From: a bacterium | Lineage (GTDB): Bacteria > Ratteibacteria > UBA8468 > B48-G9 > JAFGKM01 | Assembly (NCBI GenBank): GCA_026414725.1 | Contig: JAOAIL010000001.1 | Coordinates: 136,249-200,248 of the forward strand | DNA length: 64,000 bases | Reading direction: 5' to 3' | In this document: positions 20,146 to 36,928 of the stretch, piece by piece | Layout of the letters: the number at the start of each line of letters is the position of its first letter | How positions within the stretch are numbered: position 1 is the stretch's first letter | Notes under the pieces: generated by a model | The model's input: the letters and a program-made list of their open reading frames with translations, nothing else | What the model was told of the DNA's origin: nothing | Database searches by the model: none | Translations under genes and position numbers: made by a program

Positions 20146-20811
20146 ATGGAAAGCATAAAAGAAAATGTGAAGAGAATCCTTGCTGAGATACCTGAAGGAG
20201 TGGTTCTTGTTGCTGCTACAAAAGGAAGAAGTATAGAAGAAATAAATGAAGCAATTGATTCAGGTATAAAAGTTATCGGTGAGAATTATGTCCAGGAGGC
20301 AGAAGAAAAATTTAAGGAGATAGGGAAGTCAGTCCAGTGGCACTTCATAGGACACCTTCAGAGAAATAAGGTGAAAAAAGCACTGGACATCTTTGATTGC
20401 ATAGAAACACTTGATAATATCAATTTAGCAAAAGAGATAGATAAATATGCAGGGAAAAAAGGAATTATATTTCCAGTGTTAATCGAAGTGAATAGCGCAC
20501 GAGAACCACAGAAGTCAGGGATTTTACCTGAGGAGGTAGAAAGATTTATCAGTGAGATATCTGAATTGAAAAATATAAAAGTTGAAGGGTTGATGACGAT
20601 GGGACCAATGGTTGAAAAACCTGAGGATATAAGACCTTATTTCTGTTTAACAAAAACAATTTTTTATAAACTTAAAGAAAAGAAATTTCCCAATGTAGAG
20701 ATGAAATATCTCTCTATGGGTATGAGCGGTACATGGAAGATAGCCATAAAAGAGGGAGCAAATATAATACGTATCGGAAGTGCTATCTTTGGACAGAGGA
20801 GAAAATTATGA
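20146..20811 (+). CDS. yggS: YggS-family PLP homeostasis protein (alanine-racemase-N fold)
   Basis: VAATKGRSIEEI.EAIDSGI...GENYVQE pattern. The ORF-track start at 20056 is an N-terminal extension; ATG is at 20146. Confidence 0.75.
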   Translation: MESIKENVKRILAEIPEGVVLVAATKGRSIEEINEAIDSGIKVIGENYVQEAEEKFKEIGKSVQWHFIGHLQRNKVKKALDIFDCIETLDNINLAKEIDKYAGKKGIIFPVLIEVNSAREPQKSGILPEEVERFISEISELKNIKVEGLMTMGPMVEKPEDIRPYFCLTKTIFYKLKEKKFPNVEMKYLSMGMSGTWKIAIKEGANIIRIGSAIFGQRRKL

Positions 20812-21602
20812 AATTTGCGTTTATGAGTTTTACCACACCTGATAAGACATTGAAAGAGATGCTGGATATTGCAAAAAAGTATGGATATGATGGAATTGAA
20901 CCGAGAGCACAACAGGGACACAGACATGGTGTAGAACTTGAAGCAACGGTTGAAGAAAGGAACAAAATTAAAAAAACTTTTGAAGATGAAAGGATTGAAT
21001 GTGCCTGTATTGCTACTTCTATACATTACTGTTTCACTGATGATGAAAAAAGAGAAAAAGAAATAGAACTTACAAAAAGGTTTATTGACCTTGCTGTGGA
21101 TATTGGATGTAAAAGAATCAGGGTTTTTGGTGGTATGCCTGACAAAACCATCTCTTATGAGGAAGCAATAAAGATTGTTGGGGATGCACTTTCAAAAGTC
21201 AAGGAATATGCAGAAATAAACAGGGTCTATGTGTGCCTTGAGACCCATGATTTTTTCTCTCTACCTGATATTGCCGCATCTGCAGTAAAGATGGCAGGCA
21301 GCCCTTTTATAAGGATTAACTGGGATATTATGCATCCTTTTACAAAATTAAGAACTATTGAGGAGGCATTTGAAGAACTTAAAGGGCTGATTGAACACTG
21401 TCATGTACATGATGGTACTTATGATAAGGCGAGGATTCCAAAATTAGCATTGATGGGACAGGGAGAGATACCCTATAATATAGCAGTCCGACTTCTAAAA
21501 AACTCTGGATACAATGGCTATCTTTCTGGTGAGTATATCAACGCCTGGCCACCAGAGGTAGTTCTTCCCCATGATATTGAAGTCCTTAAGAGTTATATGT
21601 AG
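20808..21602 (+). CDS. sugar phosphate isomerase/epimerase (xylose-isomerase-like TIM barrel)
   Basis: About 265 aa with the ...CLETHD... and divalent-metal His/Asp/Glu pattern of the AP-endonuclease-2/XylA-like TIM barrel. ATGA overlap with yggS. Confidence 0.6.
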   Translation: MKFAFMSFTTPDKTLKEMLDIAKKYGYDGIEPRAQQGHRHGVELEATVEERNKIKKTFEDERIECACIATSIHYCFTDDEKREKEIELTKRFIDLAVDIGCKRIRVFGGMPDKTISYEEAIKIVGDALSKVKEYAEINRVYVCLETHDFFSLPDIAASAVKMAGSPFIRINWDIMHPFTKLRTIEEAFEELKGLIEHCHVHDGTYDKARIPKLALMGQGEIPYNIAVRLLKNSGYNGYLSGEYINAWPPEVVLPHDIEVLKSYM

Positions 21603-21604
21603 AT

Positions 21605-21796
21605 GGAGAGGTGGCTGAGTGGACGAAAGCGGCCGACTCGAAATCGGCTGTGCCTTTATGGCACCGCAGGCTGAAATACAACGTATTTCTGGATTTCAGG
21701 GGAGCGAAGTAAGAAATTGCGATGAGTAAGAGCAATTTCAGCGGGTGGCCGACCCCGAGCGTATCGGGAGCGAGGGGCGCCGAATCCTGCCCTCTG
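21605..21796 (+). pseudogene. tRNA-Ser(CGA)-like copy disrupted by a roughly 110-nt structured insertion in the T-loop
   Basis: 21605-21670 (66 nt: acceptor 5' strand through T-stem 5' strand, including the long variable arm) is identical to 21859-21924. An insertion 21671-21780 with three hairpins follows. Then CGAATCCTGCCCTCTGG resumes the T-loop/3' acceptor sequence but with CC->GG, which breaks acceptor pairing. Confidence 0.5.
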
Positions 21797-21825
21797 GTTG
21801 CGTTAGCAACCAGTCCTGCTTTTTA
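21794..21825 (+). terminator. hairpin CTGGTTGC-GTTA-GCAACCAG followed by TCCTGC-TTTTT (terminator-like)
   Basis: Perfect 8-bp stem read from the sequence. The U-tract is displaced 6 nt from the stem, so it is not canonical. Confidence 0.3.
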
Positions 21826-21858
21826 TTTAGTAGAATATATTATGAGCACCTTAATTCT

Positions 21859-21944
21859 GGAGAGGTGGCTGAGTGGACGAAAGCGGCCGACTCGAAATCG
21901 GCTGTGCCTTTATGGCACCGCAGGTTCGAATCCTGCCCTCTCCG
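21859..21944 (+). tRNA. tRNA-Ser (anticodon CGA), class II with long variable arm, no encoded CCA
   Basis: Acceptor GGAGAGG/CCTCTCC + G73. Anticodon stem GCCGA/TCGGC, loop CU-CGA-AA. Variable arm TGTGCCTTTATGGCACCGC. T-arm GCAGG-TTCGAAT-CCTGC. Confidence 0.8.
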
Positions 21945-21980
21945 TTTAAAATATGTTATAATTTAGTAAAGGAGGTTATT

Positions 21981-22964
21981 ATGGCCAGGCAGGAATACCT
22001 TTACGTCAAAAATTTTATTAAATACAACTTTCGCCATTTTAATGCTGCTGTTGTGGTATCTGCATCTGAAGCATATGTCCAACACCTGAAAGAAGGTGGT
22101 AAGATGATGATAACTATTGCAGGCGCAATGAGCACAGCAGAGTTAGGACTGACACTTGCAGAGATGATAAGGGAAGAAAAAGTTCATGCTATTACCTGCA
22201 CAGGAGCAAACCTTGAAGAAGATATATATAACCTCGTTGCACATAACTATTATGTTATGGTTCCTAACTGGAGAGACCTTTCTCCAGATGAAGAGGAAAA
22301 ACTGCTCCAGCGACAACTAAACAGAGTAACAGATACCTGTATTCCTGAAGAAGAAGCGATGAGACGATTGGAAAAGGCAGTAATAAAATACTGGAAGAAA
22401 GCAGAGGAAGAAGGGAAAAGGTACTTCCCGTATGAGTATATGTATCAGGTTATTAGAAGCGGCGACCTTGAAAAATATTACCAGATTGACCCGAAGGACT
22501 CCTGGGTAGTTGCTGCCTGTGAAAAAAACATACCTATATTTGTTCCGGGGTGGGAGGACTCTACATTAGGCAACATGTTTGTGGCTCAGGTAAAGAAAAA
22601 AGAGATAAAAGAGATATCTATTGTGAAATCAGGGCTTGAAACAATGGACTTTCTTATTGACTGGTATTTAGCAAACTCAAAAGATACAAGTATTGGATTT
22701 TTTCAGATAGGAGGAGGTATTGCAGGGGACTTCCCTATATGTGTTGTCCCTCTCATCAGGCAGGATATGAAGAAACAATGTAAACTCTGGGGATATTTCT
22801 GCCAGATATCTGACAGTACCACATCTTATGGTTCTTACAGTGGTGCTATCCCGAACGAAAAGATTACATGGGAAAAGTTAGGGGTAGATACACCTAAATT
22901 CATCATTGAAAGTGATGCTACAATAGTAGCCCCTCTTATGTTTGCTTACATACTCGCTGAGTGA
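21981..22964 (+). CDS. deoxyhypusine synthase-like (DHS fold) protein
   Basis: Segments ITCTGANLEEDIY, NIPIFVPGWEDSTLGNM, QIGGGIAGDFPI and TWEKLGVDTPKFIIESDATIVAPLMFAYILA parallel human DHS blocks ([72 protein letters not shown]). GGAGG RBS. The ORF-track start at 21873 lies inside the tRNA. Confidence 0.6.
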   Translation: MARQEYLYVKNFIKYNFRHFNAAVVVSASEAYVQHLKEGGKMMITIAGAMSTAELGLTLAEMIREEKVHAITCTGANLEEDIYNLVAHNYYVMVPNWRDLSPDEEEKLLQRQLNRVTDTCIPEEEAMRRLEKAVIKYWKKAEEEGKRYFPYEYMYQVIRSGDLEKYYQIDPKDSWVVAACEKNIPIFVPGWEDSTLGNMFVAQVKKKEIKEISIVKSGLETMDFLIDWYLANSKDTSIGFFQIGGGIAGDFPICVVPLIRQDMKKQCKLWGYFCQISDSTTSYGSYSGAIPNEKITWEKLGVDTPKFIIESDATIVAPLMFAYILAE

Positions 22965-23142
22965 TATTCCTTCCATAAAGGTATGATTATTATAAGAAGA
23001 TGCTTTCTTTTCTCTATTAAGAAAAATTCTATTCTGGAAACAGATGAGGAACAACGAATTCCTTGAATTTTAATGAGTGTTCAATATATAATATAGGGCA
23101 GAGAAATAATGCTGAATAATTAAAATTTTAATTTTATTATTT

Positions 23143-23216
23143 GCCCCTGTAGCTCAGAAGGACAGAGCAGCGGTTTCCTAAACCGCGTGTCGCCCGTTCG
23201 AGTCGGGCCAGGGGTA
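23143..23216 (+). tRNA. tRNA-Arg (anticodon CCU), no encoded CCA
   Basis: Acceptor GCCCCTG/CAGGGGT (G1:U72) + A73. Anticodon stem GCGGT/ACCGC, loop UU-CCU-AA. T-arm GCCCG-TTCGAGT-CGGGC. Confidence 0.75.
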
Positions 23217-23379
23217 CTAAAATATTAACAGATGAGTATATTCACAGATTGGTAGATTTTGTATAAACAGATAAAAGGGCGACGAAAAGGGTTTCAGGGG
23301 AAAGGTAACGTTCCCCTGAGTTTGTTATGGGGGGAGAACTATATCAGGAAGGGGGGTGAGAACCCCCCTCCTGAGATTA

Positions 23380-23419
23380 TCGCCCGTTCGAGTCGGGCCA
23401 GGGGTACTAAATATTGATA
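23380..23419 (+). repeat. direct repeat of the tRNA-Arg 3' end (T-arm + acceptor 3' strand + about 12 nt of trailer), 164 bp downstream of the gene
   Basis: TCGCCCGTTCGAGTCGGGCCAGGGGTACTAAA at 23380-23411 is identical to 23189-23220. The flanks continue ATATT..; the two copies differ by one indel. Confidence 0.65.
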
Positions 23420-23463
23420 TGTATAATCTTCAAATTTCCTAATTTTCTAAATTTAAGGGATCT

Positions 23464-24231
23464 ATGAAAAAATGGCGACTTATTATATCTGGTGTTATGT
23501 CTCCGGAAGAAAATATGGGGGTTGATTATGCTTTATGGCAATCAACATCTTCAGGAGAAAGTACTCCTGTAATCCGTTTTTATCAGTGGAATCCTCCTGC
23601 TGTATCCGTTGGATATAATCAAAGTACTAATGATTTAATAAACACAGAATTCTGTAGTACCCATAATATCCCTATTGTAAAGAGGCCTACTGGTGGAAGT
23701 GCCATATTCCATGATATAGAACTCACCTACTCTTTCTGTGGAAATGTAAAAAATCACTACTCTTTTGGTATGCCTTTATCTTCATATATAACTGTATGCG
23801 AGGGCATTATAAAGGGACTGGAATATCTTGGTATCAAGGCAGAGATACGTGGTTTTTCAGAAGGAAAAGAACCATCCTACACAACGAGAGACTGTTTTTC
23901 TCTCTCTTCAAGACATGATATTGTGGTGGAAGGGAGGAAAATTGTCGGCTCTGCACAGAGGAGAAATAAAAATGCTTTTTTACAGCATGGTTCAATACTG
24001 ATTGATATAAACAGAGAGTTATGGGATGCTATATTTATTGAGAAAGTTGACTTTTTAAAAATAATATCTCTGAAAGAATTATTCAAAAAGAGTATATCCA
24101 TTGAGATGCTTATTAAAAATATAATAATGGGCTTTGAAGATATATTTGGAGTACATTTTTTAGAAGGAGCCCTAACAGAAAAAGAGAGAAACAGAATAGG
24201 AGAGTGGAAGAGTTACCAGAAAGCAGGATAA
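23464..24231 (+). CDS. lipoate-protein ligase / octanoyltransferase (BPL_LplA_LipB family, LipM/LplA-like)
   Basis: RK..GSAQRR.K.AFLQHGSILID signature of the LplA/LipM catalytic domain. 255 aa. Confidence 0.6.
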   Translation: MKKWRLIISGVMSPEENMGVDYALWQSTSSGESTPVIRFYQWNPPAVSVGYNQSTNDLINTEFCSTHNIPIVKRPTGGSAIFHDIELTYSFCGNVKNHYSFGMPLSSYITVCEGIIKGLEYLGIKAEIRGFSEGKEPSYTTRDCFSLSSRHDIVVEGRKIVGSAQRRNKNAFLQHGSILIDINRELWDAIFIEKVDFLKIISLKELFKKSISIEMLIKNIIMGFEDIFGVHFLEGALTEKERNRIGEWKSYQKAG

Positions 24232-24273
24232 GAATTTTCTAAATTCCGTAATCTCATAATAGTTATATATACA

Positions 24274-24302
24274 TTGATTGATAAAACTTTTAGTTTTATA
24301 AT
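24274..24302 (+). promoter_or_regulatory. sigma70-like promoter TTGATT-17 nt-TATAAT upstream of the LbH-transferase/ACP/ackA genes
   Basis: TTGATT 24274-24279, 17-nt spacer, consensus TATAAT 24297-24302. About 60 nt upstream of ATG 24362. Confidence 0.4.
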
Positions 24303-24361
24303 AAGAAATATTTAATTAACACAATTGAAATAAAAAAAAGTATATAGAAAGGGGAGAAAAA

Positions 24362-25624
24362 ATGAAGGTATTAATCTATGAAGATGAAAAATGGAGAGAC
24401 CTTTTACCGATTACATTTATTAAAGCAGTATTTGAAATCAGATGTGGGTACGACACTCTCATTGATAAAATTATGTCTGTTTTGACTGAAAGTGAAAAAG
24501 GATTCTGGGTCAGGGATTATATTAAGGACCTTATAGGGAGAAAATATAATCTACCTGTTAATAACACATCATTCCTACAGGACGATATACTCTTTGTAAA
24601 TGGAAGATGGTTACCATCCTCAGAGGATAAGATAGTTATTTCAGAAGAAAAGATTGTAAAAAGTAAAGACAATATAATCTATGGTCTGCTCAAAAAAGAA
24701 ACAATCCATAAGTTCTGGAATGGTGATATTACGAAATTTTTCCATGACATTAAAAGCAGCGTAAAGGTAGAGGAAAAACAGACACGATGTATTAATTATC
24801 CATGGGACCTGATTATATATAACCCTGGCATGTTGAAAGAGGATTTCAAAAGATATGGAAAACAGGGGATAGAAGGTATATTCCATAAGGAAGCAGTTAT
24901 AGTAGGAGATGAAAAAGCAGTTTATATTGCAGAAGGAGCGAAAATACATCCTTTTGTTGTTCTTGATACTACACACGGTCCTATCTATATAGATAAAGGT
25001 GCAGAGATATTTCCTTCCGCAAGGATAGAAGGTCCCTGTTACATAGGAAAAGAAACACAGATTATGCCCGGTGCAAATATAAGAGAAGGTAATAGTTTTG
25101 GAGAGGTATGCAGGATAGGTGGTGAGGTGGAAGAATCCATATTCTATTCATATTCCAATAAGTACCATGATGGGTTTATAGGACACAGTTATATAGGAGA
25201 ATTTGTTAATCTCGGTGCACTGACAACCAATAGTGATTTAAAAAATGACTACAGTAATGTCTGTGTTTACCTTAATGGAAAGCCATTTGATACATGTAGT
25301 TTGAAAGTTGGTTCTTTTATTGGGGACCACACAAAGACAAGCATTGGCACACTTTTTAATACAGGGACCATCGCAGGTTTGATGTGTAATATCACAGCAG
25401 GCGGGATACTACCAAAGTATTTCCCTTCTTTTACATGGTATGTCAATAACAAGTTTATGAAGGGCTATGGTCTGGATATGATGATATGTACTGCAAGAAC
25501 AGTAATGCAAAGAAGAAAAAGAGAGTGGTTGAAAGAAGAAGAAGATACCATAAGGACTGTATATGAGATTACAGAAGAAGAGAGAAAAGAAGCCATAAAG
25601 AAAAGCAGAAAAACAAGTAGATAA
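24362..25624 (+). CDS. left-handed beta-helix (hexapeptide-repeat) transferase with degenerate nucleotidyltransferase-like N-domain
   Basis: C-terminal 230 aa are built of [LIV]GxxxxIxxxxxIG hexapeptide turns. The N-terminal roughly 190 aa contain LLPIT, reminiscent of sugar-nucleotidyltransferases, but lack the Gly-rich NTP loop. Confidence 0.5.
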   Translation: MKVLIYEDEKWRDLLPITFIKAVFEIRCGYDTLIDKIMSVLTESEKGFWVRDYIKDLIGRKYNLPVNNTSFLQDDILFVNGRWLPSSEDKIVISEEKIVKSKDNIIYGLLKKETIHKFWNGDITKFFHDIKSSVKVEEKQTRCINYPWDLIIYNPGMLKEDFKRYGKQGIEGIFHKEAVIVGDEKAVYIAEGAKIHPFVVLDTTHGPIYIDKGAEIFPSARIEGPCYIGKETQIMPGANIREGNSFGEVCRIGGEVEESIFYSYSNKYHDGFIGHSYIGEFVNLGALTTNSDLKNDYSNVCVYLNGKPFDTCSLKVGSFIGDHTKTSIGTLFNTGTIAGLMCNITAGGILPKYFPSFTWYVNNKFMKGYGLDMMICTARTVMQRRKREWLKEEEDTIRTVYEITEEERKEAIKKSRKTSR

Positions 25625-25634
25625 GGAGGTTAAG

Positions 25635-25889
25635 ATGGACTATAAAGAGATAGAAGCGAGAGTAAAAAAGGTTATCTCTGAAGTTTTAGGGGTAGATGAG
25701 GAAGGAATAACTCCTGAAAGCAGATTTGTTGAGGATTTAGGAGCTGAAAGTGTTCAAAGTTTGGAACTGGTGGCTGCCTTTGAGGATGAGTTTGACATAG
25801 AGATGGAAGAAGATGCAGCACTCCAAGTTAAGACCGTGGGAAAGGCAGTGGAATTTATACAGAGACACCTAAATGGGAAGGGAAGATGA
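25635..25889 (+). CDS. acyl carrier protein-like (phosphopantetheine attachment site)
   Basis: 84 aa, acidic. DLGAESVQSLELVAAFEDEFDIE matches the ACP helix-2 DLGADSLD..EL motif with the conserved Ser. AGGAGG RBS. Confidence 0.7.
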   Translation: MDYKEIEARVKKVISEVLGVDEEGITPESRFVEDLGAESVQSLELVAAFEDEFDIEMEEDAALQVKTVGKAVEFIQRHLNGKGR

Positions 25890-27085
25890 AAATACTTGTA
25901 ATAAACTGTGGCAGTTCCTCAGTAAAATTTAAGGTCTTTGAGATGCCGGAAGAGGAACTGGTTGCAGAAGGCAATGTTGAAAAAATAGGAGAAGAGATTG
26001 CATTGTTCTCATATACAAAGGGGCAACAACAATTATTTTACAGAAAATCAGTAGATGTAAAAACGCACACTGCTGCTCTCTCTCTTATTGCAAGTACATT
26101 GGGAGATAAAGAAATTGGAGTTATAAATGATGTAAAAGAAATTAAAGGAGTAGGACACCGAGTTGTCCATGGAGGTGAGGGCTTTGACAGAAGCGTTCTC
26201 ATTACAGATGAGGTTATAAAAAAGATAGAAGAATACCAGACCCTTGCACCACTCCATAATCCACATAACCTATCAGGTATCAGGGCCTCTATGAAATTTT
26301 TCCCAGACAGTTTACAGGTTGCTGCTTTTGATACTGCATTCCACACCACCATCCCCCCTGTTGCATATCTTTATGCTATACCCTATGAGTTTTATGAGAA
26401 ATACAGGATAAGAAGATATGGATTTCATGGGACTTCTCATAGATATGTAGCAAGACGTGCCGCTGAACTTCTGGGAAAAGGGAAGTATGATGTGAATGTT
26501 ATTACATGCCATCTGGGTAATGGTTGCAGTATTACAGCAGTGAGAAATGGACATTCTGTGGATACGAGTATGGGATTGACACCGCTTGAAGGACTTGTAA
26601 TGGGAACACGGTCAGGAGATATTGACCCCGGTGTAATATTCCATCTTATTGACTCACTGGGTTTGAGTGCAAAAGAGGTCAATGATCTTCTGAACAAGAA
26701 AAGCGGACTTTTAGGTCTTTCAGGTATCTCCAATGATTTCAGGAACCTTCTTTCTAAAATGGAAGAAGATAGGGTTTTACTTGCTATAGATATTTACAGT
26801 TATAGAATCAAAAAATATATCGGAATGTATATGGCTGTGTTAGGCAGAGTGGACGCCATTGTTTTTACTGGGGGTGCAGGAGAGAATGTTCCTCATATAA
26901 GAGAGAGGGCACTTTCAGGACTTGAAAACTTTGGGATTATCCTTGACAGTGAGAGGAATTATAAAGCATTCGCAAAGGAAGAGAAAATCAGTGCAGAAAA
27001 TTCTAAGGTAAAGGTCTTTGTTATTCCCACCAATGAAGAACTCCGTATTGCCTTTGACACATACCAGCTGGTAAGTCAGAAGTAA
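25886..27085 (+). CDS. ackA: acetate kinase
   Basis: MKILVINCGSSSVKF, VGHRVVHGG, HLGNG.S, VFTGG.GEN signatures. ATGA overlap with the ACP gene. Confidence 0.9.
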   Translation: MKILVINCGSSSVKFKVFEMPEEELVAEGNVEKIGEEIALFSYTKGQQQLFYRKSVDVKTHTAALSLIASTLGDKEIGVINDVKEIKGVGHRVVHGGEGFDRSVLITDEVIKKIEEYQTLAPLHNPHNLSGIRASMKFFPDSLQVAAFDTAFHTTIPPVAYLYAIPYEFYEKYRIRRYGFHGTSHRYVARRAAELLGKGKYDVNVITCHLGNGCSITAVRNGHSVDTSMGLTPLEGLVMGTRSGDIDPGVIFHLIDSLGLSAKEVNDLLNKKSGLLGLSGISNDFRNLLSKMEEDRVLLAIDIYSYRIKKYIGMYMAVLGRVDAIVFTGGAGENVPHIRERALSGLENFGIILDSERNYKAFAKEEKISAENSKVKVFVIPTNEELRIAFDTYQLVSQK

Positions 27086-27208
27086 AAAACTATTATTACA
27101 TCTTTTTACTATTCACTCCATCCCTTTATCTTTTTCTATCAGTTTCATCTGTGGTAATATAAAAAATGTTGTGCGCGGGTGGAATCTCTTTATTAAGAAA
27201 GGTTGCAT

Positions 27209-29779
27209 ATGAGGTTAAATTTGAACAATAATGGTAAAAAACAAGTATTAAGTTTTGATTACATTGGATGCCCCCTGGAGATTCTTTTCAAGGAACTTAG
27301 TACCTCGGCAGAGGGCTTAAATGACTCTCAGGCTAAAGAGAGGATTGAACAATATGGTTATAACGAACCTGCACGGAGAAAAAAACGGACAATTATCTTT
27401 GAAATTTTCTCTAAGTTTTTAAATCCTCTTGTTATAGTACTTCTTATCATCGCAGGTTTTTCTATTATTCTCGGTGAGAAAATAAGTGCCATTCTGGTAA
27501 TTGCTATGGCATTGATAAGTGTCTTACTTTCCTTTATACAAGAGCATCGCGCAAGCAGGGAAGTTGAAAAACTGATAGAGATGGTACGTACAACTGCAAC
27601 AGTTTATCGTAATGGCAAACCTCGTGAGATCAACATCAGGGAAATTGTACCAGGAGATATTGTAGAACTTTCTGCTGGTGATATGATACCAGCAGATTTA
27701 AGGATTATTTCAGCTAAGGACTTGTTTATAAATCAGGCATCTCTTACAGGAGAATCTTTTGCTGTTGAAAAAACAGTGGAAGTACCTCTCTCCTCTAAAC
27801 GTTCTCCTACAGATTTAACCAACATTGCTTTCATGGGCTCAAGTGTAGTGAGTGGGACAGGGCTTGGTATTGTTCTTAAAACAGGCCTTTCTACTCAGTT
27901 CGGGGAAATTTCACGTAAACTGACTACCATAACAGCAACAAGCAGTTTTGACAAGGGTATTCGTAAATTTACATGGTTGATGATTCGCTTCATGATAATA
28001 CTGGTGCTTGTAATTTTCAGCATAAATGCTTTGAATAAAGGTAATATCCTGGAATCTTTCTTATTCGCCCTTTCAGTTGCTGTAGGACTTACTCCAGAAA
28101 TGCTTCCTATGCTTGTAGCAATCAATCTTTCTAAAGGTGCTATTGTAATGTCAAAAAAAGGTGTCATTATCAAACGTCTTAATGCTATTCAAAACTTCGG
28201 TGCGATGGATGTCCTTTGTACTGATAAGACGGGCACCCTGACTATAAATAAAATTGTCCTTGAACATCACTGTGATATAGTGGGGAAAGAGGACGATGAT
28301 GTATTACGGTTCGCTTATATAAATAGTTATTATCAGACAGGTCTCAAAAATATCTTGGATCGGGCAGTAATCAAACATGAAAAATTATTAGTCAAGCAAT
28401 ATAAAAAAGTTGACGAGGTTCCATTTGACTTCTCCCGTAAAATCATGTCTGTAGTTATTGAGAACGATAGTAAACACAGAATTATTGTTAAAGGGGCTCC
28501 GGAGGAAATATACAAGCGATGTACCAAATTTGAAATTGATGGTGAGATTCTTGAATTAGGAGAAGGAAATCTAATTCTTACTGAATTAAAAACACAATAT
28601 GATAACCTCAGTGCAGAGGGTTTTCGTGTTTTAGCTATAGCCTATAAGGATTTTGAACAACCCAAAGATAAATATACTACAGATGACGAACATGATTTGA
28701 TTCTTAAAGGATACATTGCTTTTCTTGACCCACCAAAACCATCTGCTAGAAAAACCATAGAAACATTGAAGAATCTTGGTATAGATTTTAAGGTTTTAAC
28801 CGGTGATAATGAATTAGTTACTAAAAAAATATGTCTTGAGGTAGGACTCAATATTAAAGGTTGTACTACAGGCGAACAGATAGAAAAAATGAGTGAAGAG
28901 GATTTGCGAGAGTTAGTAAAAAAAACAACTGTCTTTGCCAGACTTTCTCCTCTCCAGAAAGAGCGGATTATTCATGCTTTGCACGATAATAAACACATTG
29001 TTGGTTATATTGGCGATGGCATCAATGACGCTCCAGCACTAAAAACTGCTGATGTGGGAATTTCAGTTAATAATGCGGTGGATATAGCAAAAGAATCAGC
29101 GGATATTATTCTTTTAAAGAAAAGTCTTCTGGTGCTTACTGATGGAGTTATAGAAGGGAGAAAGACATTTGGCAATATTCTAAAATATATAAAGATGGGC
29201 GCAAGCTCAAATTTTGGAAATATGATAAGTATGACAGGGGCGAGCGTATTTCTCCCTTTCCTTCCCATGCTCCCTATACAGATATTACTTAATAACCTAC
29301 TCTATGATATTTCACAGATAGCCATACCATCAGATGAGATAGATAAAGAATATTTGATAAAGACAAGGCCATGGAATGTTGAATACATCAAGAAATTTAT
29401 GCTGTTTATCGGACCTGTAAGCTCTCTTTTTGATTTTGTAACATTCGGGGTCTTATGGTTTGTTTTTAAAGCGCATCAACCATTATTTAATACGGGATGG
29501 TTTTTAGAATCTCTTTGTACACAAACACTTGTTATTCATATAATTCGTACAGGGAAAGTTCCTTTTGTGGAAAGTAAACCGAGTCCATTTTTAATTTTTA
29601 CATCCATCTATATAGTTACAATAGGACTGATATTACCATTTATCCCGCTTGGAAAATACTTTGGTTTTGTCCAGCCCCCACCGACATATTTTATTGCTTT
29701 AATAGTTATCGTCGCTTTTTACTTATTTACAGTACAACAGGTAAAAATGTGGTTTATTAAAAGACATGGATATGAATAA
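27209..29779 (+). CDS. mgtA: Mg2+-importing P-type ATPase (type IIIB, MgtA family)
   Basis: N-terminal LSTSAEGLNDSQAKERIEQYGYNE, phosphorylation site CTDKTGTLT, hinge GDGINDAPALK. 10 TM pattern. The ORF-track start at 27203 is TTG; ATG is at 27209. Confidence 0.8.
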   Translation: MRLNLNNNGKKQVLSFDYIGCPLEILFKELSTSAEGLNDSQAKERIEQYGYNEPARRKKRTIIFEIFSKFLNPLVIVLLIIAGFSIILGEKISAILVIAMALISVLLSFIQEHRASREVEKLIEMVRTTATVYRNGKPREINIREIVPGDIVELSAGDMIPADLRIISAKDLFINQASLTGESFAVEKTVEVPLSSKRSPTDLTNIAFMGSSVVSGTGLGIVLKTGLSTQFGEISRKLTTITATSSFDKGIRKFTWLMIRFMIILVLVIFSINALNKGNILESFLFALSVAVGLTPEMLPMLVAINLSKGAIVMSKKGVIIKRLNAIQNFGAMDVLCTDKTGTLTINKIVLEHHCDIVGKEDDDVLRFAYINSYYQTGLKNILDRAVIKHEKLLVKQYKKVDEVPFDFSRKIMSVVIENDSKHRIIVKGAPEEIYKRCTKFEIDGEILELGEGNLILTELKTQYDNLSAEGFRVLAIAYKDFEQPKDKYTTDDEHDLILKGYIAFLDPPKPSARKTIETLKNLGIDFKVLTGDNELVTKKICLEVGLNIKGCTTGEQIEKMSEEDLRELVKKTTVFARLSPLQKERIIHALHDNKHIVGYIGDGINDAPALKTADVGISVNNAVDIAKESADIILLKKSLLVLTDGVIEGRKTFGNILKYIKMGASSNFGNMISMTGASVFLPFLPMLPIQILLNNLLYDISQIAIPSDEIDKEYLIKTRPWNVEYIKKFMLFIGPVSSLFDFVTFGVLWFVFKAHQPLFNTGWFLESLCTQTLVIHIIRTGKVPFVESKPSPFLIFTSIYIVTIGLILPFIPLGKYFGFVQPPPTYFIALIVIVAFYLFTVQQVKMWFIKRHGYE

Positions 29780-29865
29780 AATATATTTCCGTTATCTATT
29801 TAACATTATTGAGATTAAAGAACTATCTTTTCCGGCTATAGTGCAACAACATAATAAGACAAATC

Positions 29866-30219
29866 TCAAAATTGAATAAAAATCGCAGTGGTTATAATAT
29901 TTTTACTTCTCTTTAAAAAATTAAGGGTAAGCCCTTGAATATCTTCTTTTTCTTTCAACAGAGGGATTGGTTTCCCTTTCTTCCATATAATCTCAATGTC
30001 CTTAAAGTAAAATTCTTTCTGTTTCTCATCGGGTAGCGCCTTCCAGATGGCTTCTTTAAAAGAGAATGAGACAGCCATGTAGAAATGACTATTTATTTCA
30101 GGGAGGTGCTCCAGTTCTCTTCTGGTATATATCCTTCTTATAAATCTCTCTCCATATCTTTTTACTACCATTTCAAACCTTTCTATATCTACAATATCAA
30201 TACCTGTTGTTATCTCCAC
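29866..30219 (-). CDS. acpS: holo-[acyl-carrier-protein] synthase (4'-phosphopantetheinyl transferase)
   Basis: (V)EITTGIDIVDIERF....R.GERF..R..T..E is the AcpS N-terminal signature. Likely GTG start at 30219 preceded by AAGGAG (7-nt spacer). The longer ORF to 30390 has no AcpS-like N-extension and overlaps the promoter-like repeat. Confidence 0.65.
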   Translation of the reverse strand: MEITTGIDIVDIERFEMVVKRYGERFIRRIYTRRELEHLPEINSHFYMAVSFSFKEAIWKALPDEKQKEFYFKDIEIIWKKGKPIPLLKEKEDIQGLTLNFLKRSKNIITTAIFIQF

Positions 30220-30225
30220 TTTTCT

Positions 30226-30284
30226 TCTCCTTGAAAAACTTTTCTTTTCATTGTAAATTTTATGGAATATTTTGGCAACTTTAA
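30226..30284 (+). repeat. copy A of a 59-bp promoter-like repeat (TTGAAA-17 nt-TAAATT core)
   Basis: 53/59 identical to 31491-31549. -35 TTGAAA at 30231-30236, -10 TAAATT at 30254-30259. Lies about 205 bp upstream of the GH130 ATG. Its complement provides the acpS RBS. Confidence 0.55.
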
Positions 30285-30383
30285 ACCACTTTTTAAGAAA
30301 AAGATGACACATACACATAAAAGAATAAATTGCTGGAAACAAAAGATAGGTATTATGTAGAATCCAGAAAATGCTATCTGGAT

Positions 30384-30412
30384 TTGACAAATCTTATACT
30401 TGTGAGATAATA
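30384..30412 (+). promoter_or_regulatory. sigma70-like promoter TTGACA-17 nt-ATAATA proximal to the GH130 gene
   Basis: Consensus -35 TTGACA at 30384-30389, ATAATA at 30407-30412. About 80 nt upstream of ATG 30491. Confidence 0.35.
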
Positions 30413-30490
30413 TCAGGCAATTCGTTAATCAGAAATAGTTATTTTTTTGTTATAGGGTAAAATATAAACTTAAAATTATGGGAGGGGATG

Positions 30491-31393
30491 ATGGATACTG
30501 TATATTTAACAAGATATAAAAACAATCCGATACTGAGGATTAATAAAAATAATAACTGGGAATGTACCCAGGTCTGCAATCCTGGGGTGGAAATTTATAA
30601 AGGTAAGGTCTATATCCTTTACAGGGCAGGAGGCACTGATATGATGACGAGTGCTTCAGGATGGCCTGTCTCAAGATTGGGACTTGCTGTTTCAGAGGAT
30701 GGTTTTAATGTCATTTATAGAACTCCAGAACCTGTATTAAAACCAGAAGATGAGGAGTGGACAGATATTGAGGGAATAGAAGACCCGAGGATAAGTAAAA
30801 TAGGTGACAAATACTACATCATTTATGTAATTGTAGGATTCAGATGGGATAGAATTGCTCTCGCGACTACCACTGATTTCAAAAATTTTCGCAGGCATGG
30901 TGTTATAATGAAGGACATAGCACAAAGAACAAGTGCTTTATTCCCTGAAAAGTTTGACAATCAATTTATTCTGGTTCACAGGATGGTCCCGTCAATCTGG
31001 TTTTCAAAAACAGAAGATTTCAAAAAATTCACTTCTTCCAAAATAATTTTAACACCTGACACTTTGCCATGGAGTGAGAAAAAGATAGGGGTAGCAGGAC
31101 CACCTATCAGGATAGGAGATAAATGGGTTATGTTTTTCCACGGAGTTGATAGACATAACACATATAGAGTAGGAATATGCTGGTTAGATGGTAAAAACCC
31201 TTATAAAGTTATAAGAATTCAAAAAGAACCAGTTCTTGAACCTGAAGCGGACAACGAAAGAAATGGGTTTACTCCGAATGTGGTGTATCCCTGTGGTAAT
31301 ATAGAGAAAAATGGGAATATACTTGTTTATTATGGTGCAGGTGATAAGGATATTGGTGTAGCGTATATAGAAAAAGAAAAACTTGAATTTTAG
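30491..31393 (+). CDS. glycoside hydrolase family 130-like glycosidase/phosphorylase (DUF377 beta-propeller)
   Basis: NPG....G.VYILYRA ... SRLGLA.S.DG ... EDPRI....D.YYI.Y ... RIALATT.D are the conserved GH130 blocks. GGAGG is 5 nt before ATG 30491. Confidence 0.7.
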   Translation: MDTVYLTRYKNNPILRINKNNNWECTQVCNPGVEIYKGKVYILYRAGGTDMMTSASGWPVSRLGLAVSEDGFNVIYRTPEPVLKPEDEEWTDIEGIEDPRISKIGDKYYIIYVIVGFRWDRIALATTTDFKNFRRHGVIMKDIAQRTSALFPEKFDNQFILVHRMVPSIWFSKTEDFKKFTSSKIILTPDTLPWSEKKIGVAGPPIRIGDKWVMFFHGVDRHNTYRVGICWLDGKNPYKVIRIQKEPVLEPEADNERNGFTPNVVYPCGNIEKNGNILVYYGAGDKDIGVAYIEKEKLEF

Positions 31394-31490
31394 CGAGAGA
31401 AGAAAAAACAAATCTTACATTTGGGGAAAAACAGAAATAGTTATAATACTTTTTCAAACCTTTCTCAATATTAATCATCTTTCTTTACTT

Positions 31491-31549
31491 TCTCCTTGAA
31501 AAACTTTTCTTTTCATTGTAAATTGTATAGGATATTTTGGCAATTTTAA
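31491..31549 (+). repeat. copy B of the 59-bp promoter-like repeat, 22 nt upstream of the SGNH-hydrolase ATG
   Basis: -35 TTGAAA 31496-31501, -10 TAAATT 31519-31524. Followed by AAGGAAGGAG RBS and ATG 31571. Confidence 0.55.
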
Positions 31550-31570
31550 CAGCATAAGGAAGGAGAAAAA

Positions 31571-32575
31571 ATGATTTATAAAGGAGTGTATCTGCATAAT
31601 GTGGCGGAACTGCTTAAAACAGAAGATGGGATTATGTTAACAAGGATACCTGATAGTTTAAGAATGTCTTTAAGTACATGGATACAGACAAGAGCGATAA
31701 GGCCGGCAGGTGTTGAACTACGGTTTAATTTGAAAAGTAATTCTGCGAGAATTATCCTGAAATCACAGGAAGAGGGTATCTTTGTTAGTGAGGTATACCA
31801 GGGAAACTTTCTTGTGAAGTATTGCTATATAAGTAACAATGATTCTGAAATTGTGATATCCCTTCCCCAAAATATAGAGCAACTTAAAGAGATATCAAAA
31901 AAGAAGAAATTGCCTTTTGATGCAGGACTTACAAGGATAATTCTCCCCTGGGGACCAACCTGTGTAATTAAAGATATTGAAGGGGAATTTGAGCCACCCA
32001 TGAAAGAACAACTTCCAGCAATAAGATACCTTGCCTATGGCTCTTCCATTACACAGGGGGAAAGTGCTATAAATCCTTCAGGTACATATGCAATGAAAAC
32101 AGCATATCTTCTTGGATTGGACCTGATAAACTTAGGATTTGGTAGTGGTGCCCGCTGTGAGAAAGAGATGGCTGACTATATTGCAGGTAGAAATGACTGG
32201 GCCTTTGCCACACTGGAGATGGGGATAAATATGTTCTATGATGTCATGAGTGTTTCTGAATTCAGAAAAAGGGTGGAGTATTTTGTCCCCACGATAGTAA
32301 AAGCACACCCTGATAAGTATGTGTTCTGTATTGATATGTTTACCTTTAATTTAGGACGTAAAGGAGAGAAAAAAAGACAGAAGGAATACAGAGATATAGT
32401 TAAGGAAGTTGCCACGGCAATGAATTCGGAGAAAGTAATCCACATTGATGGAAGAAAGCTTTTAAAGTCATGGTCTGGACTGTGTAGGGACCTCGTCCAT
32501 CCTTCACCGGCAGGGATGGAAGAGATAGCGAGGAATCTGTCAGGGATAATAAAGAGATATATAAAGTATAAATGA
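31571..32575 (+). CDS. SGNH/GDSL-family hydrolase (carbohydrate esterase-like) with N-terminal extra domain
   Basis: LAYGSSITQGESA (block I Gly-Ser-Ser nucleophile), G.N.F (block III), and a D..HP-type block V near the C-terminus. Confidence 0.6.
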   Translation: MIYKGVYLHNVAELLKTEDGIMLTRIPDSLRMSLSTWIQTRAIRPAGVELRFNLKSNSARIILKSQEEGIFVSEVYQGNFLVKYCYISNNDSEIVISLPQNIEQLKEISKKKKLPFDAGLTRIILPWGPTCVIKDIEGEFEPPMKEQLPAIRYLAYGSSITQGESAINPSGTYAMKTAYLLGLDLINLGFGSGARCEKEMADYIAGRNDWAFATLEMGINMFYDVMSVSEFRKRVEYFVPTIVKAHPDKYVFCIDMFTFNLGRKGEKKRQKEYRDIVKEVATAMNSEKVIHIDGRKLLKSWSGLCRDLVHPSPAGMEEIARNLSGIIKRYIKYK

Positions 32576-32874
32576 GAAAAGAAACAAAAATTGCCTTTAT
32601 AGGAGAAGAAGGAAGTATTGAATTTTTTAAATTATTCGGTGCAGATATTTTCTCTGCCAATAGTAAGAATGAAGCACTTACAATAATAGAAAATCTCAAT
32701 CGTTCTGAATATGGTGTTATATTCATTACAGAGGAGGTTTTTGACAGAGACCTTTTTAATAGATATGTAATAGAGAAAAAAGTTATTGTTATCCCTTCAT
32801 TGAAATCAAATGAAGGAAAGGGCTATCAGATAGTGGAAGAACTTATTAAAAAAGCAACAGGAATGAAAGGATGA
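32572..32874 (+). CDS. atpF: V-type ATP synthase subunit F
   Basis: KIAFIGEEGSIEFFKLFGADI ... EYGVIFITEE ... VIVIPSLKS aligns block by block with Enterococcus NtpG ([21 protein letters not shown] ... EYGVIYITEQ ... IILIPSHQG). ATGA overlap with the SGNH gene. Confidence 0.75.
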   Translation: MRKETKIAFIGEEGSIEFFKLFGADIFSANSKNEALTIIENLNRSEYGVIFITEEVFDRDLFNRYVIEKKVIVIPSLKSNEGKGYQIVEELIKKATGMKG

Positions 32875-32877
32875 AAA

Positions 32878-34644
32878 ATGGAGGATAAAGGAAAGATTGT
32901 AAAGGTGAGTGGACCACTTGTTCAGGCAGAAGGGATGAAGAGTGCAAGGATGTATGATGTTGTAAGAGTGGGGGAAGAAAAACTTATAGGAGAGATAATA
33001 CGGATAGAAGGTAATACTGTTTCTATTCAAGTATATGAAGAAACAGAAGGATTAAAGGTGGGTGACCCTGTATTTGGTACGGGAGAACCATTAATGGTAG
33101 AACTCGGACCCGGTCTTTTATCAAATATATTTGATGGAATTCAAAGGCCCCTATCAAGATTAGAAACTACAGGGGATTTCATCCTTAAGGGTGTCCAGAT
33201 ACCTGCATTAGACAGGGAGAAAAAATGGATGTTTAAACCGATAGTAAAGAAAGGAGATTTTGTTTCAGAAGGAGATATTATAGGGGAGGTTCAAGAAACA
33301 GGGATTATTGTCCATAAAATCCTTGTACCATATGGTTTTAATGGAGAAATTATTGATATAAAAGAAGGAGATTTTACTGTAGAAGAAGAGATAGGAAGAA
33401 TAAGAACAGAAGAGGGGAAAAATGTTCCCCTTTATCTTATGCAGAGATGGCCTGTTCGTGCCAAAAGGGCTGTGAGAGAAAAAAGACCTCCAGTTGAACC
33501 ACTCGTTACAGGACAGAGAGTAATAGATACTCTTTTCCCTGTAGCAAAAGGTGGGACCGCATGTATTCCTGGTCCATTTGGCTCTGGCAAAACAGTGGTA
33601 TTGCATCAAATAGCCAAGTGGGCAGATGCACAGGTGGTTGTGTATATCGGCTGTGGAGAAAGAGGAAATGAGATGGCAGATGTCCTTATAGAGTTCCCTG
33701 AATTGCAAGACCCTCAAAGTGGAAGACCTCTTATGGAGAGGACAGTTCTTATTGCGAATACATCTAATATGCCTGTTGCTGCAAGAGAAGCATCTATTTA
33801 TACAGGTATAACAATTGCAGAGTATTTCAGGGATATGGGTTATTCTGTTGCACTTATGGCTGACTCTACAAGCAGGTGGGCAGAGGCACTGAGAGAGATA
33901 TCAGGACGACTTGAGGAAATGCCTGGCGAGGAAGGATATCCTGCCTATTTAGGAACATCTGTTGCCTCTTTTTATGAAAGGGCAGGAAGATGTCTATGTC
34001 TCGGCAACAGAGAAGGTACTCTTTCCGTAATAGGTGCTGTCAGTCCACCCGGAGGAGACCTTACAGACCCTGTGGTACAGATGACACTGAAAGTAGTAAA
34101 GGTATTCTGGGGACTGGATGACCGGCTTGCTTACCAGAGGCACTTCCCTGCAATAAACTGGCTTACAAGTTATTCCCTGTATATAGAAAATCTTAAGAAA
34201 TATTCTGAAAATAATATAGCATCGGATTTTACTTCTATCAGACAGACAGCACTTTCTATACTTGAAAAGGAAGCAGAACTTTTAGAGATAGTCCGACTTG
34301 TAGGTATGGAGACACTTTCTGCACAGGACCGTCTTATCCTTGAAACCGCCAGAAGCATCAGGGAGGACTTTCTACACCAGAGTGCATTTGATGAAAGGGA
34401 TGCATATACAACACTAAAGAAACAATACAGGATGTTAAAAACTATCATACTCTTCTACCAGTATGCATCACAGGCAATTGAAAAAGGAATATCCATAGAA
34501 AAAATTCATAATCTTCATATCAGAGAAAATATCGTAAAGATGAGATATATAGCCCACTCAAAAGTAGAAGAAGAGTTTGGTAAATTAGAAACAAATATAA
34601 AAGAAGCATTCCCTACTCTCGGTATTGAGAGTAAAGTGCTATAA
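32878..34644 (+). CDS. atpA: V-type ATP synthase catalytic subunit A
   Basis: 588 aa. N-terminal beta-barrel segment, Walker [17 protein letters not shown], and typical A-subunit length. Confidence 0.9.
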
Positions 34645-36928
34645 CTGACTGACCTGCGGAGATACATCCATCATTTGTTGGAAGGTTATGGTGGCAGAAG
34701 ACAGAAAAATTGTTTTCTTGCAATTCCTTCCATACAATATCAAGTAAAAGTTTGTTCTGAAATACACCTCCTGAAAGAACCACTCTATATATCCCTCTTT
34801 CTTCTTTTATTCGTTTGCATATCCTGGTAATTATTGCTGATATAGTTCTGTGGAACTTATATGAGATTTTTTCCGTAGATATACCACTTTTTATATCATC
34901 TACAATGCTTTTTATTAAAGGCAACAGGTCTATTATTAAACTACTCTCTTCTCTTATTCCATATTTATAGGGTTTCCCCTCTGTCTTTTTTGCTATCATT
35001 TCAAGTTCTATTGCTGGCTGTGCTTCATAGGTAATGTTTTCACTTATACCAAGTATTGAAGAAACCCCATCAAAAAGACGTCCCATACTTGAGACAGGTA
35101 CACAGTTTATATCTTTCTTAAACATATCCAGTATGAATTCTGTCTTACTTCTATATCTTTCAATAAATGGGATTTTAAGATTGAAAATTTCATTACCAAA
35201 GGTTTTGTACAGCAAAGACAGCCCTATCCTCCAGACCTCCTTAATTGCCTTCTCTCCACCTGGAAGTGTTATATAGTCAAGGTAAGCATACCGCTCATAA
35301 GTTCTATAGTCAGCAATTAAAAACTCTGCCCCTCTTATATCCCCTTTTTCTCCATAACCAGTTCCGTCCAGCGCAACACCTATAACCTTTTCATTCTTAA
35401 GATTATTATCAAGCATACAAGAAGCAATATGTGCGTGGTGATGCTGAATACCTATGGTCTTCAACCCATTTCTTTTAGCCATATCCAGTGCAAACTTTGT
35501 AGGTAGATAGTCAGGATGAAGGTCATGGGCAACTATTTCCGGAGAAAAACCAAAAATTCTTACAAAGTGTTCAAATGTTTCATAATAAAAATTCAGTGTC
35601 TCTGCATCTTCCTGATTACCTGTATGCTGACTTAAAATAATACTATTATCTCTACCAAAAGCAAATGTATTCTTCTCTTCTGCTCCTGCAGCAAAGACCT
35701 CTTTTTTGAAAGAAATAGCTGTTTTTATCATATCAGGTGTATATCCCCGTGCCTTTCTTATCATATATATGTTTTTATCAGGGGCAACCCTCACCACAGA
35801 ATCATCACATCCGGTCTTTATAGGACGGTTGTTTGTAAGGATATAGTCAGAAATATAAGTAAGTTTTTCCATTTCTTTTTTGTTATCCTTGAAGATAATC
35901 GGGCTATCCGCAATATTGGCACTGGTAGCAACAACTACATCAGGGCAGTTAAAGAAAAATAGGAGGTGGTGGACAGGTGTATAAGGAAGAAAAAATCCTA
36001 AATATCTGTTAGAAGGGGCTATTTCTTCTGGAAGAGTACAATTCTCTTTTTTCTTTAAAAGAACTATGGGACTTTGCCACGAAACTAATAACTTTTTTTC
36101 TACACTACTTATAAAGCAGTATTGTTTTGCTGTTTTTATATCCTTTGCCATAAGAGCAAAAGGCTTATCTCCCCTGTTTTTTATTTCTCTTAATCTATTT
36201 ACTATCTTGCTATTTTTTGCATCACAGATAAGATGATATCCCCCTGTCCCTTTTACCGCAACAATGTATCCTTTGTTTATAAGTTCTGCGGACCTTTTTA
36301 TTGCTTCTATACCTTTTGCCAGAATCTCATCTTTAATTAAAAAAACATCAGGACCACAGACAAAACAGCAATCCGGCTGTGCATGAAACCTTCTATCAGC
36401 AGGGTTATTATATTCTTTTAGACATTCAGGACACATCTTAAATATCTTCATAGTTGTATTTTCTCTGTCATAGGGAAGTTTTTCTGTAATGGTAAACCGT
36501 GGTCCACAATTTGTGCAGTTGATAAAAGGAAACAGATATCTCCTGTCTTCAGGATTAAATAACTCTTTCAGACATTCATTACATATAGCAATATCAGGAG
36601 AAAGTTCAATTTTTATCTTTTCTGATGTATATCTACTTCCAATTATTCTGAATGTCTTTTCACTATTGATAGGATTTGTGTATATGACAGAGATTTTGTT
36701 AATATGTGCGCGAACCGGTGGGTTTCTCTTTATCTTTTCAATAAATTTTTCTATATTCTTTATAAAACCTTCTACTTCTATATATAACCCATCTGCAGTA
36801 TTACATACAAAACCAGTCAACCTGTTCTCAACAGCATACTTGAAGACAGAAGGTCTGAATCCAACCCCCTGAACCCTGCCTTCAATAAAAACCTTTACCC
36901 TTCTTTTCAGGAGTGCCATTTCTCTCAC
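34613..36928 (-). CDS. hypF: [NiFe]-hydrogenase maturation carbamoyltransferase HypF
   Basis: 771 aa. N-terminal acylphosphatase ([11 protein letters not shown]), two CxxC-x18-CxxC zinc fingers, YrdC-like and Kae1/YgjD-like C-terminal domains. Confidence 0.9.

Follow-up and report, generated by a model that had tools for sequence, protein, structure and literature searches.

We analysed a 64-kb stretch of a Ratteibacteria genome (64,000 nucleotides of contig JAOAIL010000001.1, hereafter the window) in which a 60-bp element, here called E, occurs twice: copy A lies beside acpS, the gene encoding holo-ACP synthase, and copy B lies directly upstream of an SGNH/GDSL hydrolase gene (SGNH), with a GH130 glycoside hydrolase/phosphorylase gene between them. 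E is probably the ancestral divergent promoter region of acpS and SGNH, duplicated together with the 5′ end of acpS around an insertion of GH130. The conspicuous repeat would then record genome history rather than a new regulatory device, an outcome of ordinary genome evolution that changes no general concept. The duplicated segment and the features overlapping it are as follows (UTR, untranslated region; RBS, ribosome-binding site; ORF, open reading frame).

30225 to 30284, no strand: copy A of E, acpS-proximal, with orthologous single-copy spacers in the related contigs L001, L002, L017 and L018
31490 to 31549, no strand: copy B of E, whose right flank aligns with the spacer of L001, L002 and L017 as far as the SGNH ATG
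31550 to 31570: ancestral SGNH 5′ UTR and RBS, directly after copy B
29866 to 30219, minus strand: acpS, GTG start, 117 amino acids, Pfam ACPS; a 100% identical protein (P0001) is named holo-ACP synthase
30160 to 30224, minus strand: intact first ~20 codons of acpS plus the 7-nt spacer between RBS and start, the left part of the duplicated segment
31441 to 31489, minus strand: decayed duplicate of the acpS 5′ end, a pseudo-fragment with 40 of 65 alignment columns identical and frame-breaking deletions of 7 and 9 nt
31269 to 31478, minus strand: antisense ORF of 69 amino acids, starting in the acpS relic and continuing antisense to GH130, without a Pfam match

The two copies of E have the same orientation, forming a direct repeat, and are identical at 56 of 60 positions, with mismatches at 30260, 30264, 30266 and 30279. 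An earlier reading made from the sequence alone (the sequence-only reading) had described a 59-bp repeat with 53 of 59 positions identical; the repeat is real, but in that same frame the identity is 55 of 59, and the distances given there also shift slightly, to 21 nt rather than 22 between copy B and the SGNH ATG (31571) and to 203 nt rather than about 205 between copy A and the GH130 ATG (30488). The left 35 nt of E are the same in both copies and occur twice in the window at up to three mismatches, with no occurrence expected from 100 shuffles. No third copy in the 64 kb came up in a repeat search of the whole window or with an nhmmer profile of seven copies, and an exact 24-mer from the repeat had no matches in genome and metagenome contig collections, which do not contain the source genome. 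Looking up the exact proteins of acpS and SGNH from the window, and P0001, likewise retrieved no records. E has no internal inverted repeats.

Homology between the two sites extends beyond E on the acpS side. A gapped alignment puts the whole duplication at ~125 nt (30160–30284 versus 31441–31549, with indels), of which 65 nt, 60 of them coding, lie beyond E towards acpS. Only 2 of 2,000 dinucleotide shuffles scored as high as the left-flank extension, whereas the right flanks were at chance level; the weaker upstream similarity that had been noticed from the letters alone (30160–30201 versus 31441–31475 in the gapped alignment) is thus real. In the copy B relic, strings for IDIV and ERFE are still recognizable, split by the deletions. 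A DNA profile of acpS and its spacer built only from relatives matched the window at 29862–30285 (E-value 1e-101) and again at 31446–31552 (E-value 2.3e-13), and the alignment at the second site extends into acpS codon positions. Collinear homology that runs past E into coding sequence, with disabling changes in copy B, identifies the repeat as a local segmental duplication. The sequence-only reading, which saw in E a cassette in its own right, had itself named copied coding sequence as a finding that would speak against it; because the duplication also copied ~20 acpS codons, the idea of a free-standing cassette is unsupported in this window.

That reading had also picked out the antisense ORF. 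Its AAGGAG-N13-ATG is present, but the ORF is not a gene: it has no Pfam match, a poor 13-nt Shine–Dalgarno spacing and an origin in the acpS relic. We also considered a duplicate of the whole acpS gene with an internal deletion, given that the acpS 3′ end (29856–29904) resembles 31405–31453 at 73% identity. This candidate was rejected: the similarity was marginal relative to shuffles, was equalled elsewhere in the window and was missed by the relatives-only profile.

The co-duplicated acpS stub, decayed beside an intact promoter copy, serves as an internal control for the retention of E. The E copies (56 of 60 identical) are significantly better preserved than the stub (40 of 65; Fisher p 3e-5), which suggests that E is under selection or that the copies undergo gene conversion. 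Alignment with the copies of relatives showed that at three of the four differing positions copy A alone has changed, and these positions fall in the portion corresponding to the SGNH 5′ UTR, which copy A no longer needs.

The relatives examined were contigs of metagenome-assembled genomes labelled Ratteibacteria, Omnitrophota or 'bacterium' and reached through SGNH and acpS homologues. In L017 (acpS 78% identical at the amino acid level), L001/L013/L014 and L002, the relatives that had usable upstream sequence, acpS and SGNH are direct divergent neighbours without GH130 between them, and a single copy of E occupies the acpS–SGNH spacer of ~85–90 nt. Across related genomes, the spacer separating acpS from the SGNH/V-ATPase F-A genes measures 70–90 nt. 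The left flank of copy A continues into acpS, and the right flank of copy B matches the relatives' spacer up to the SGNH ATG. This single-copy state at the orthologous locus of close relatives again marks the two copies in the window as products of a segmental duplication. Even in distant relatives (acpS 52–56% identical), E is still recognizable between acpS and the V-ATPase F/A side.

The 50-nt core of E is 80–94% identical between the window and its relatives, compared with 65–78% for acpS coding DNA. Across 11 copies of E from 7 lineages, the invariant elements are TTGAAA, CATTGTAAATT and the TTGnnA of the minus-strand −35 hexamer; as alignment columns, the invariant positions are CCTTGAAAAA, TTCATTGTAAATT and TTG..A, with variable columns lying between hexamers. 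Both TACAAT and TTGnnA on the minus strand are kept in all relatives aligned. Judged from these alignments, the conservation pattern is that expected of two overlapping divergent promoters and an RBS. The hexamers that we predict to form these promoters are listed below.

30231 to 30259, plus strand: predicted rightward promoter of copy A, TTGAAA-17-TAAATT, now facing the GH130 leader
31496 to 31524, plus strand: predicted promoter of SGNH and V-ATPase F and A in copy B, TTGAAA-17-TAAATT
30250 to 30278, minus strand: predicted acpS promoter in copy A, TTGCCA (30278–30273), 17 nt, TACAAT (30255–30250)
31515 to 31543, minus strand: duplicate of the predicted acpS promoter in copy B, now facing the acpS relic and antisense to the GH130 3′ end

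Sigma70-like hexamers at 16–18-nt spacing are found on both strands and are correctly placed for both divergent genes. In both copies the minus-strand pair TTGCCA-17-TACAAT matches the consensus better (10 of 12 positions) than the plus-strand pair TTGAAA-17-TAAATT (9 of 12), the latter being present in both copies as had been reported. The −10 hexamers of the two strands overlap in CATTGTAAATT; going downstream from the respective predicted −10 hexamer, it is ~30 nt to the acpS GTG and ~46 nt to the SGNH ATG. The left end of each E copy is the complement of AAGGAG (CTCCTT at 30227–30232 on the plus strand of copy A), and the complement of copy A supplies the acpS RBS, as first proposed from sequence: AAGGAG (30232–30227), 7 nt and then GTG at 30219. 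Read on the minus strand, copy A would therefore comprise an acpS promoter, a short 5′ UTR and the RBS. E as a whole is best read as a compact divergent promoter region in which two predicted sigma70-like promoters overlap back to back, and RNA polymerase can probably bind it in one orientation at a time. Of the bidirectional regulatory cassette envisaged by the sequence-only reading, what remains are the hexamers on both strands, the acpS RBS and the strong conservation in an orthologous spacer; what does not remain, within the sequence searched, is a free-standing or dispersed element.

High non-coding conservation would also fit an element encoding a structured RNA, whether leader, riboswitch or small RNA, with one copy ahead of each of two genes, and the 203 nt between copy A and the GH130 start leave space for a leader. 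We regard this explanation as highly improbable. Rfam gave no match to E even when permissive E-values were allowed, and in neither copy did either strand fold as RNA better than shuffles (z −0.85 to +1.04). The conserved columns are promoter hexamers and the RBS rather than paired positions, and the 203-nt leader is conserved nowhere among the loci compared.

Bidirectional and divergent sigma70 promoters, as described in PMC10268837 and PMC12825309, resemble E in using one short AT-rich segment for two divergent genes, with overlapping −10-like hexamers. In the canonical bidirectional promoter (Warman et al. 2021, according to PMC10268837), the start sites are 18 bp apart and −7T and −11A are reciprocally paired. 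For E, counting from the best minus-strand hexamers predicts a start separation of ~23 bp (with TACAAT at 30255–30250) or ~16 bp (with a second TACAAT/TAAAAT), and a weak partner that would give 18 bp, CAATTT, is also present. Each direction in E has its own predicted −35 hexamer.

The sequence to the right of copy A is made up of the inserted segment, followed beyond copy B by the ancestral neighbours of E.

30285 to 30487, plus strand: leader of the lineage-specific insert, 203 nt, with no homologous sequence in relatives or elsewhere in the window
30488 to 31393, plus strand: GH130 glycoside hydrolase/phosphorylase gene, the inserted cargo, Pfam Glyco_hydro_130
31394 to 31440, plus strand: 3′ flank of the insert, 47 nt, whose similarity to the acpS 3′ end is unsupported
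31571 to 32575, plus strand: SGNH/GDSL hydrolase gene, the ancestral rightward neighbour of E, Pfam GDSL/SGNH
32572 to 32874, plus strand: V-ATPase F, its start overlapped by the SGNH stop
32878 to 34644, plus strand: V-ATPase A, 588 amino acids, following V-ATPase F

Leader, GH130 and tail together form a lineage-specific segment of 1.16 kb (30285–31440). GH130 has its own predicted promoter, the separate TTGACA promoter already suspected from the letters, found here as TTGACA-16-GATAAT at 30384–30411. The closest GH130 homologues are 71–72% identical and lie inside unrelated sugar operons; there is no flank homology to these loci, only the coding sequence matching. GH130 and its leader each occur only once in the window, and the insert shows no anomaly in GC composition. 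A pair of 16-mers around GH130 (30427–30442 and 31429–31444, 15 of 16 identical) was at chance level (E-value 0.15) and was discarded. The suggestion that the two glycan-related genes share a regulatory cassette is not borne out, as GH130 was inserted between the promoter and SGNH and did not recruit a shared operator. Separately, a perfect palindrome with 8-bp arms (AATCCAGA-N8-TCTGGATT, 30361–30384) abuts the −35 hexamer of the TTGACA promoter of GH130. It is possibly an operator for a sugar-responsive regulator, and it is not conserved in any fetched relative locus.

The same architecture arose a second time. L012 has the order acpS, E, GH127, E, with both E copies in the same orientation and a 101-nt duplication that is identical at 97 of 101 positions. 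This duplication begins at the acpS start codon and reaches 40 nt further right than that of the window; it represents an independent event, with ends and cargo that differ from those of the window. Content of the slot to the right of E varies widely among relatives: nothing precedes V-ATPase F in L015/L023 and L028–L031, two small genes are present in L026/L027, SGNH stands alone in L001/L013/L014 and with one extra gene in L017 and L002, a GH109-like oxidoreductase gene follows a diverged E in L020, an IS110-family transposase gene follows E in L018/L019, and GC-rich hairpin-bearing sequence follows it in L024. Given the independent recurrence with GH127, the spot right of E marks a small hotspot for gain of carbohydrate-active genes. 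The simplest reading of the recurrence is survivorship, whereby an insert that separates a promoter from needed genes is retained only when the promoter has been duplicated as well.

In L018 (2223–3971, and L019 1–265), the IS110-family (DEDD) transposase gene comes after ~640 nt of non-coding DNA with GC-rich palindromes. This non-coding DNA starts within a few nucleotides of the right end of E, almost exactly at the breakpoint of the GH130 insertion in the window.

A different reading of the recurrence would make E a portable promoter module, or landing pad, with mostly glycan-related genes captured by recombination between E copies and each gaining its own E, by analogy with translocatable units of the insertion sequence IS26 or a promoter-centred cassette array. 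If true, a landing pad for GH130, GH127, SGNH and GH109-like genes would constitute a recombinase-free, promoter-centred cassette system. The repetition of the architecture with different cargo and boundaries (GH130 in the window, GH127 in L012), the varied content of the slot, breakpoints within a few nucleotides of the right end of E in the window, L018 and L015, and the position of E between DegT and SGNH in L016, despite an acpS-E-V-ATPase F order in L015 of the same metagenome, would all fit such a module. We nevertheless consider it unlikely. Almost all relatives have E at a fixed place beside acpS, as expected of an orthologous spacer; the duplicated segments do not share their ends, taking in 65 nt on the acpS side in the window and 40 nt on the other side in L012; E lacks terminal inverted repeats and a hairpin; Pfam scans of 13 neighbouring genes (20733–36928) revealed no recombinase; only two copies exist in the 64 kb; and survivorship explains the recurrence.

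Direct repeats bracketing an inserted gene, and an IS110-family transposase gene directly right of E in L018/L019, would also be in line with E as a site-specific recombination site, att-like or integron attC-like, with GH130 as the integrated cassette. This is a very improbable explanation: single-stranded DNA folding of either strand was no better than that of shuffles (z −0.7 to +0.2), internal inverted repeats are lacking, no integrase was found in the Pfam scan of neighbouring genes, the two events duplicated segments of different length (125 versus 101 nt) and with different ends, and copy B holds acpS coding sequence that a defined att core would not need. Integron cassettes with attC do share with the window a gene that lies between short repeats next to a promoter able to express it, but in the window there is no integrase in the neighbouring genes scanned, no attC-like hairpin and no fixed ends, and the promoter, an orthologous spacer, is the repeat itself.

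A dispersed repeat, such as a miniature inverted-repeat transposable element (MITE) or a REP-like element, was rejected, as E has two copies in 64 kb, no terminal inverted repeats or palindrome, and ends that are inconstant between the window and L012. In viral contigs, a degenerate 29-mer of E was absent, and two matches to a 19-mer core had no flanking similarity and were attributed to chance.

In Campbell-type integration and in IS26 translocatable units, the insert is bracketed by direct repeats shared by the donor circle and the target. The window resembles these systems in having one repeat joined to a truncated neighbour gene; it differs in that no insertion sequence or recombinase is visible, the shared sequence is a 100–125-nt promoter region and the circular intermediate is hypothetical. 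With segmental duplications that leave a pseudogene fragment and a duplicated promoter, the window shares collinear homology across a gene start, with the coding part decayed and the regulatory part kept. The locus belongs to this last category, and its sole unusual feature is the independent duplication of the same spacer around another glycoside hydrolase.

Several points weigh against E as a simple duplicated divergent promoter. Hexamer matches are common in AT-rich DNA (19 sites in 2 kb versus 8.3 in shuffles), several overlapping minus-strand hexamer pairs are possible, so that start-site positions are ambiguous, and both the promoter activity and the direction of E are predicted by matching to the consensus. 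Gene conversion or a recent event, rather than selection, could account for the near-identity of the E copies. The copy count covers the 64-kb window, and more copies may be present elsewhere in the genome. Finally, acpS is not always the neighbour of E: in L016, E is flanked by a DegT aminotransferase gene and SGNH, whereas L015 from the same metagenome has acpS-E-V-ATPase F. This suggests that E travels with genes to a greater extent than expected from a simple, single duplication.

Under the divergent-promoter reading, ancestral E would have been the intergenic region from which acpS was read leftward and SGNH and V-ATPase F and A rightward. The 1.16-kb GH130 segment, with its own leader and promoter, would have entered just to the right of E in an event that doubled ~125 nt, comprising E and the ~20 codons at the start of acpS. 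This would most likely have come about by single-crossover (Campbell-type) integration, with this homology present on a circular fragment, or by tandem duplication followed by insertion. Copy A would keep serving acpS, and its rightward promoter would read into the GH130 leader, adding to the own promoter of GH130. Copy B would keep serving SGNH and V-ATPase F/A rightward, while transcription from its leftward promoter would cross the acpS stub and enter the GH130 3′ end in the antisense direction. A scan of the minus strand found no terminator-like site in the stub, the nearest lying at 31104–31090, inside GH130.

The locus offers a predicted promoter, well supported by conservation, for an uncultured lineage of the Ratteibacteria/Omnitrophota type with almost no known promoters, and it shows how an insert between a promoter and its genes is tolerated. 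The hotspot for gain of carbohydrate-active genes could matter for niche adaptation in these bacteria.

Further observations concern the neighbours of E. A gene for a P-type cation ATPase (858 amino acids, 27203–29779) lies between ackA and acpS in the window. Since ackA and acpS are adjacent or overlapping in L002, L017, L018 and L023, this gene represents a second lineage-specific insertion beside acpS, with no flanking repeats found around 27203–29779. In L025 (533–4571), acpS closes a co-directional cluster (xylose-isomerase-like TIM barrel, DegT aminotransferase, ceramidase-like, acpS) and E is not recognizable, and the DegT and ceramidase-like pair of this cluster is also found on the acpS side of E in L016. 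On the other side of E, V-ATPase A of the window (588 amino acids) has no intein, whereas orthologues in several relatives (993–1125 amino acids; L002 4002–6983, L026 1464–4787, L028 2276–5614) carry an intein with a LAGLIDADG homing-endonuclease domain. The V-ATPase loci of the window, L002, L026 and L028 contain only the F and A subunit genes, beside a convergent hypF.

Two tRNA loci elsewhere in the window also contain partial repeats. A duplicate of the first 74 nt of tRNA-Ser(CGA), 96% identical, lies 254 nt upstream of the intact gene (21604–21677 and 21858–21945). The upstream copy breaks off after 'GCAGG', a tRNA-like 3′ piece (GAATCCTGCCCTCT) follows ~105 nt later (~21783–21796), and ARAGORN and Rfam call the downstream copy only; the upstream copy may represent a tandem tRNA that was disrupted, or else a tRNA with a T-arm insertion. 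For tRNA-Arg(CCT) (23143–23217), the last 32 nt together with the trailer (23190–23221) are exactly repeated 190 nt downstream (23380–23411). The 158-nt segment between these repeats is rich in G+C hairpins (for example, GGGGAAAGGTAACGTTCCCC), and the arrangement resembles att-type repeats that enclose a small insertion or the remnant of one. GC-rich hairpin sequences similar to this segment lie to the right of E in L012, L024 and L018.

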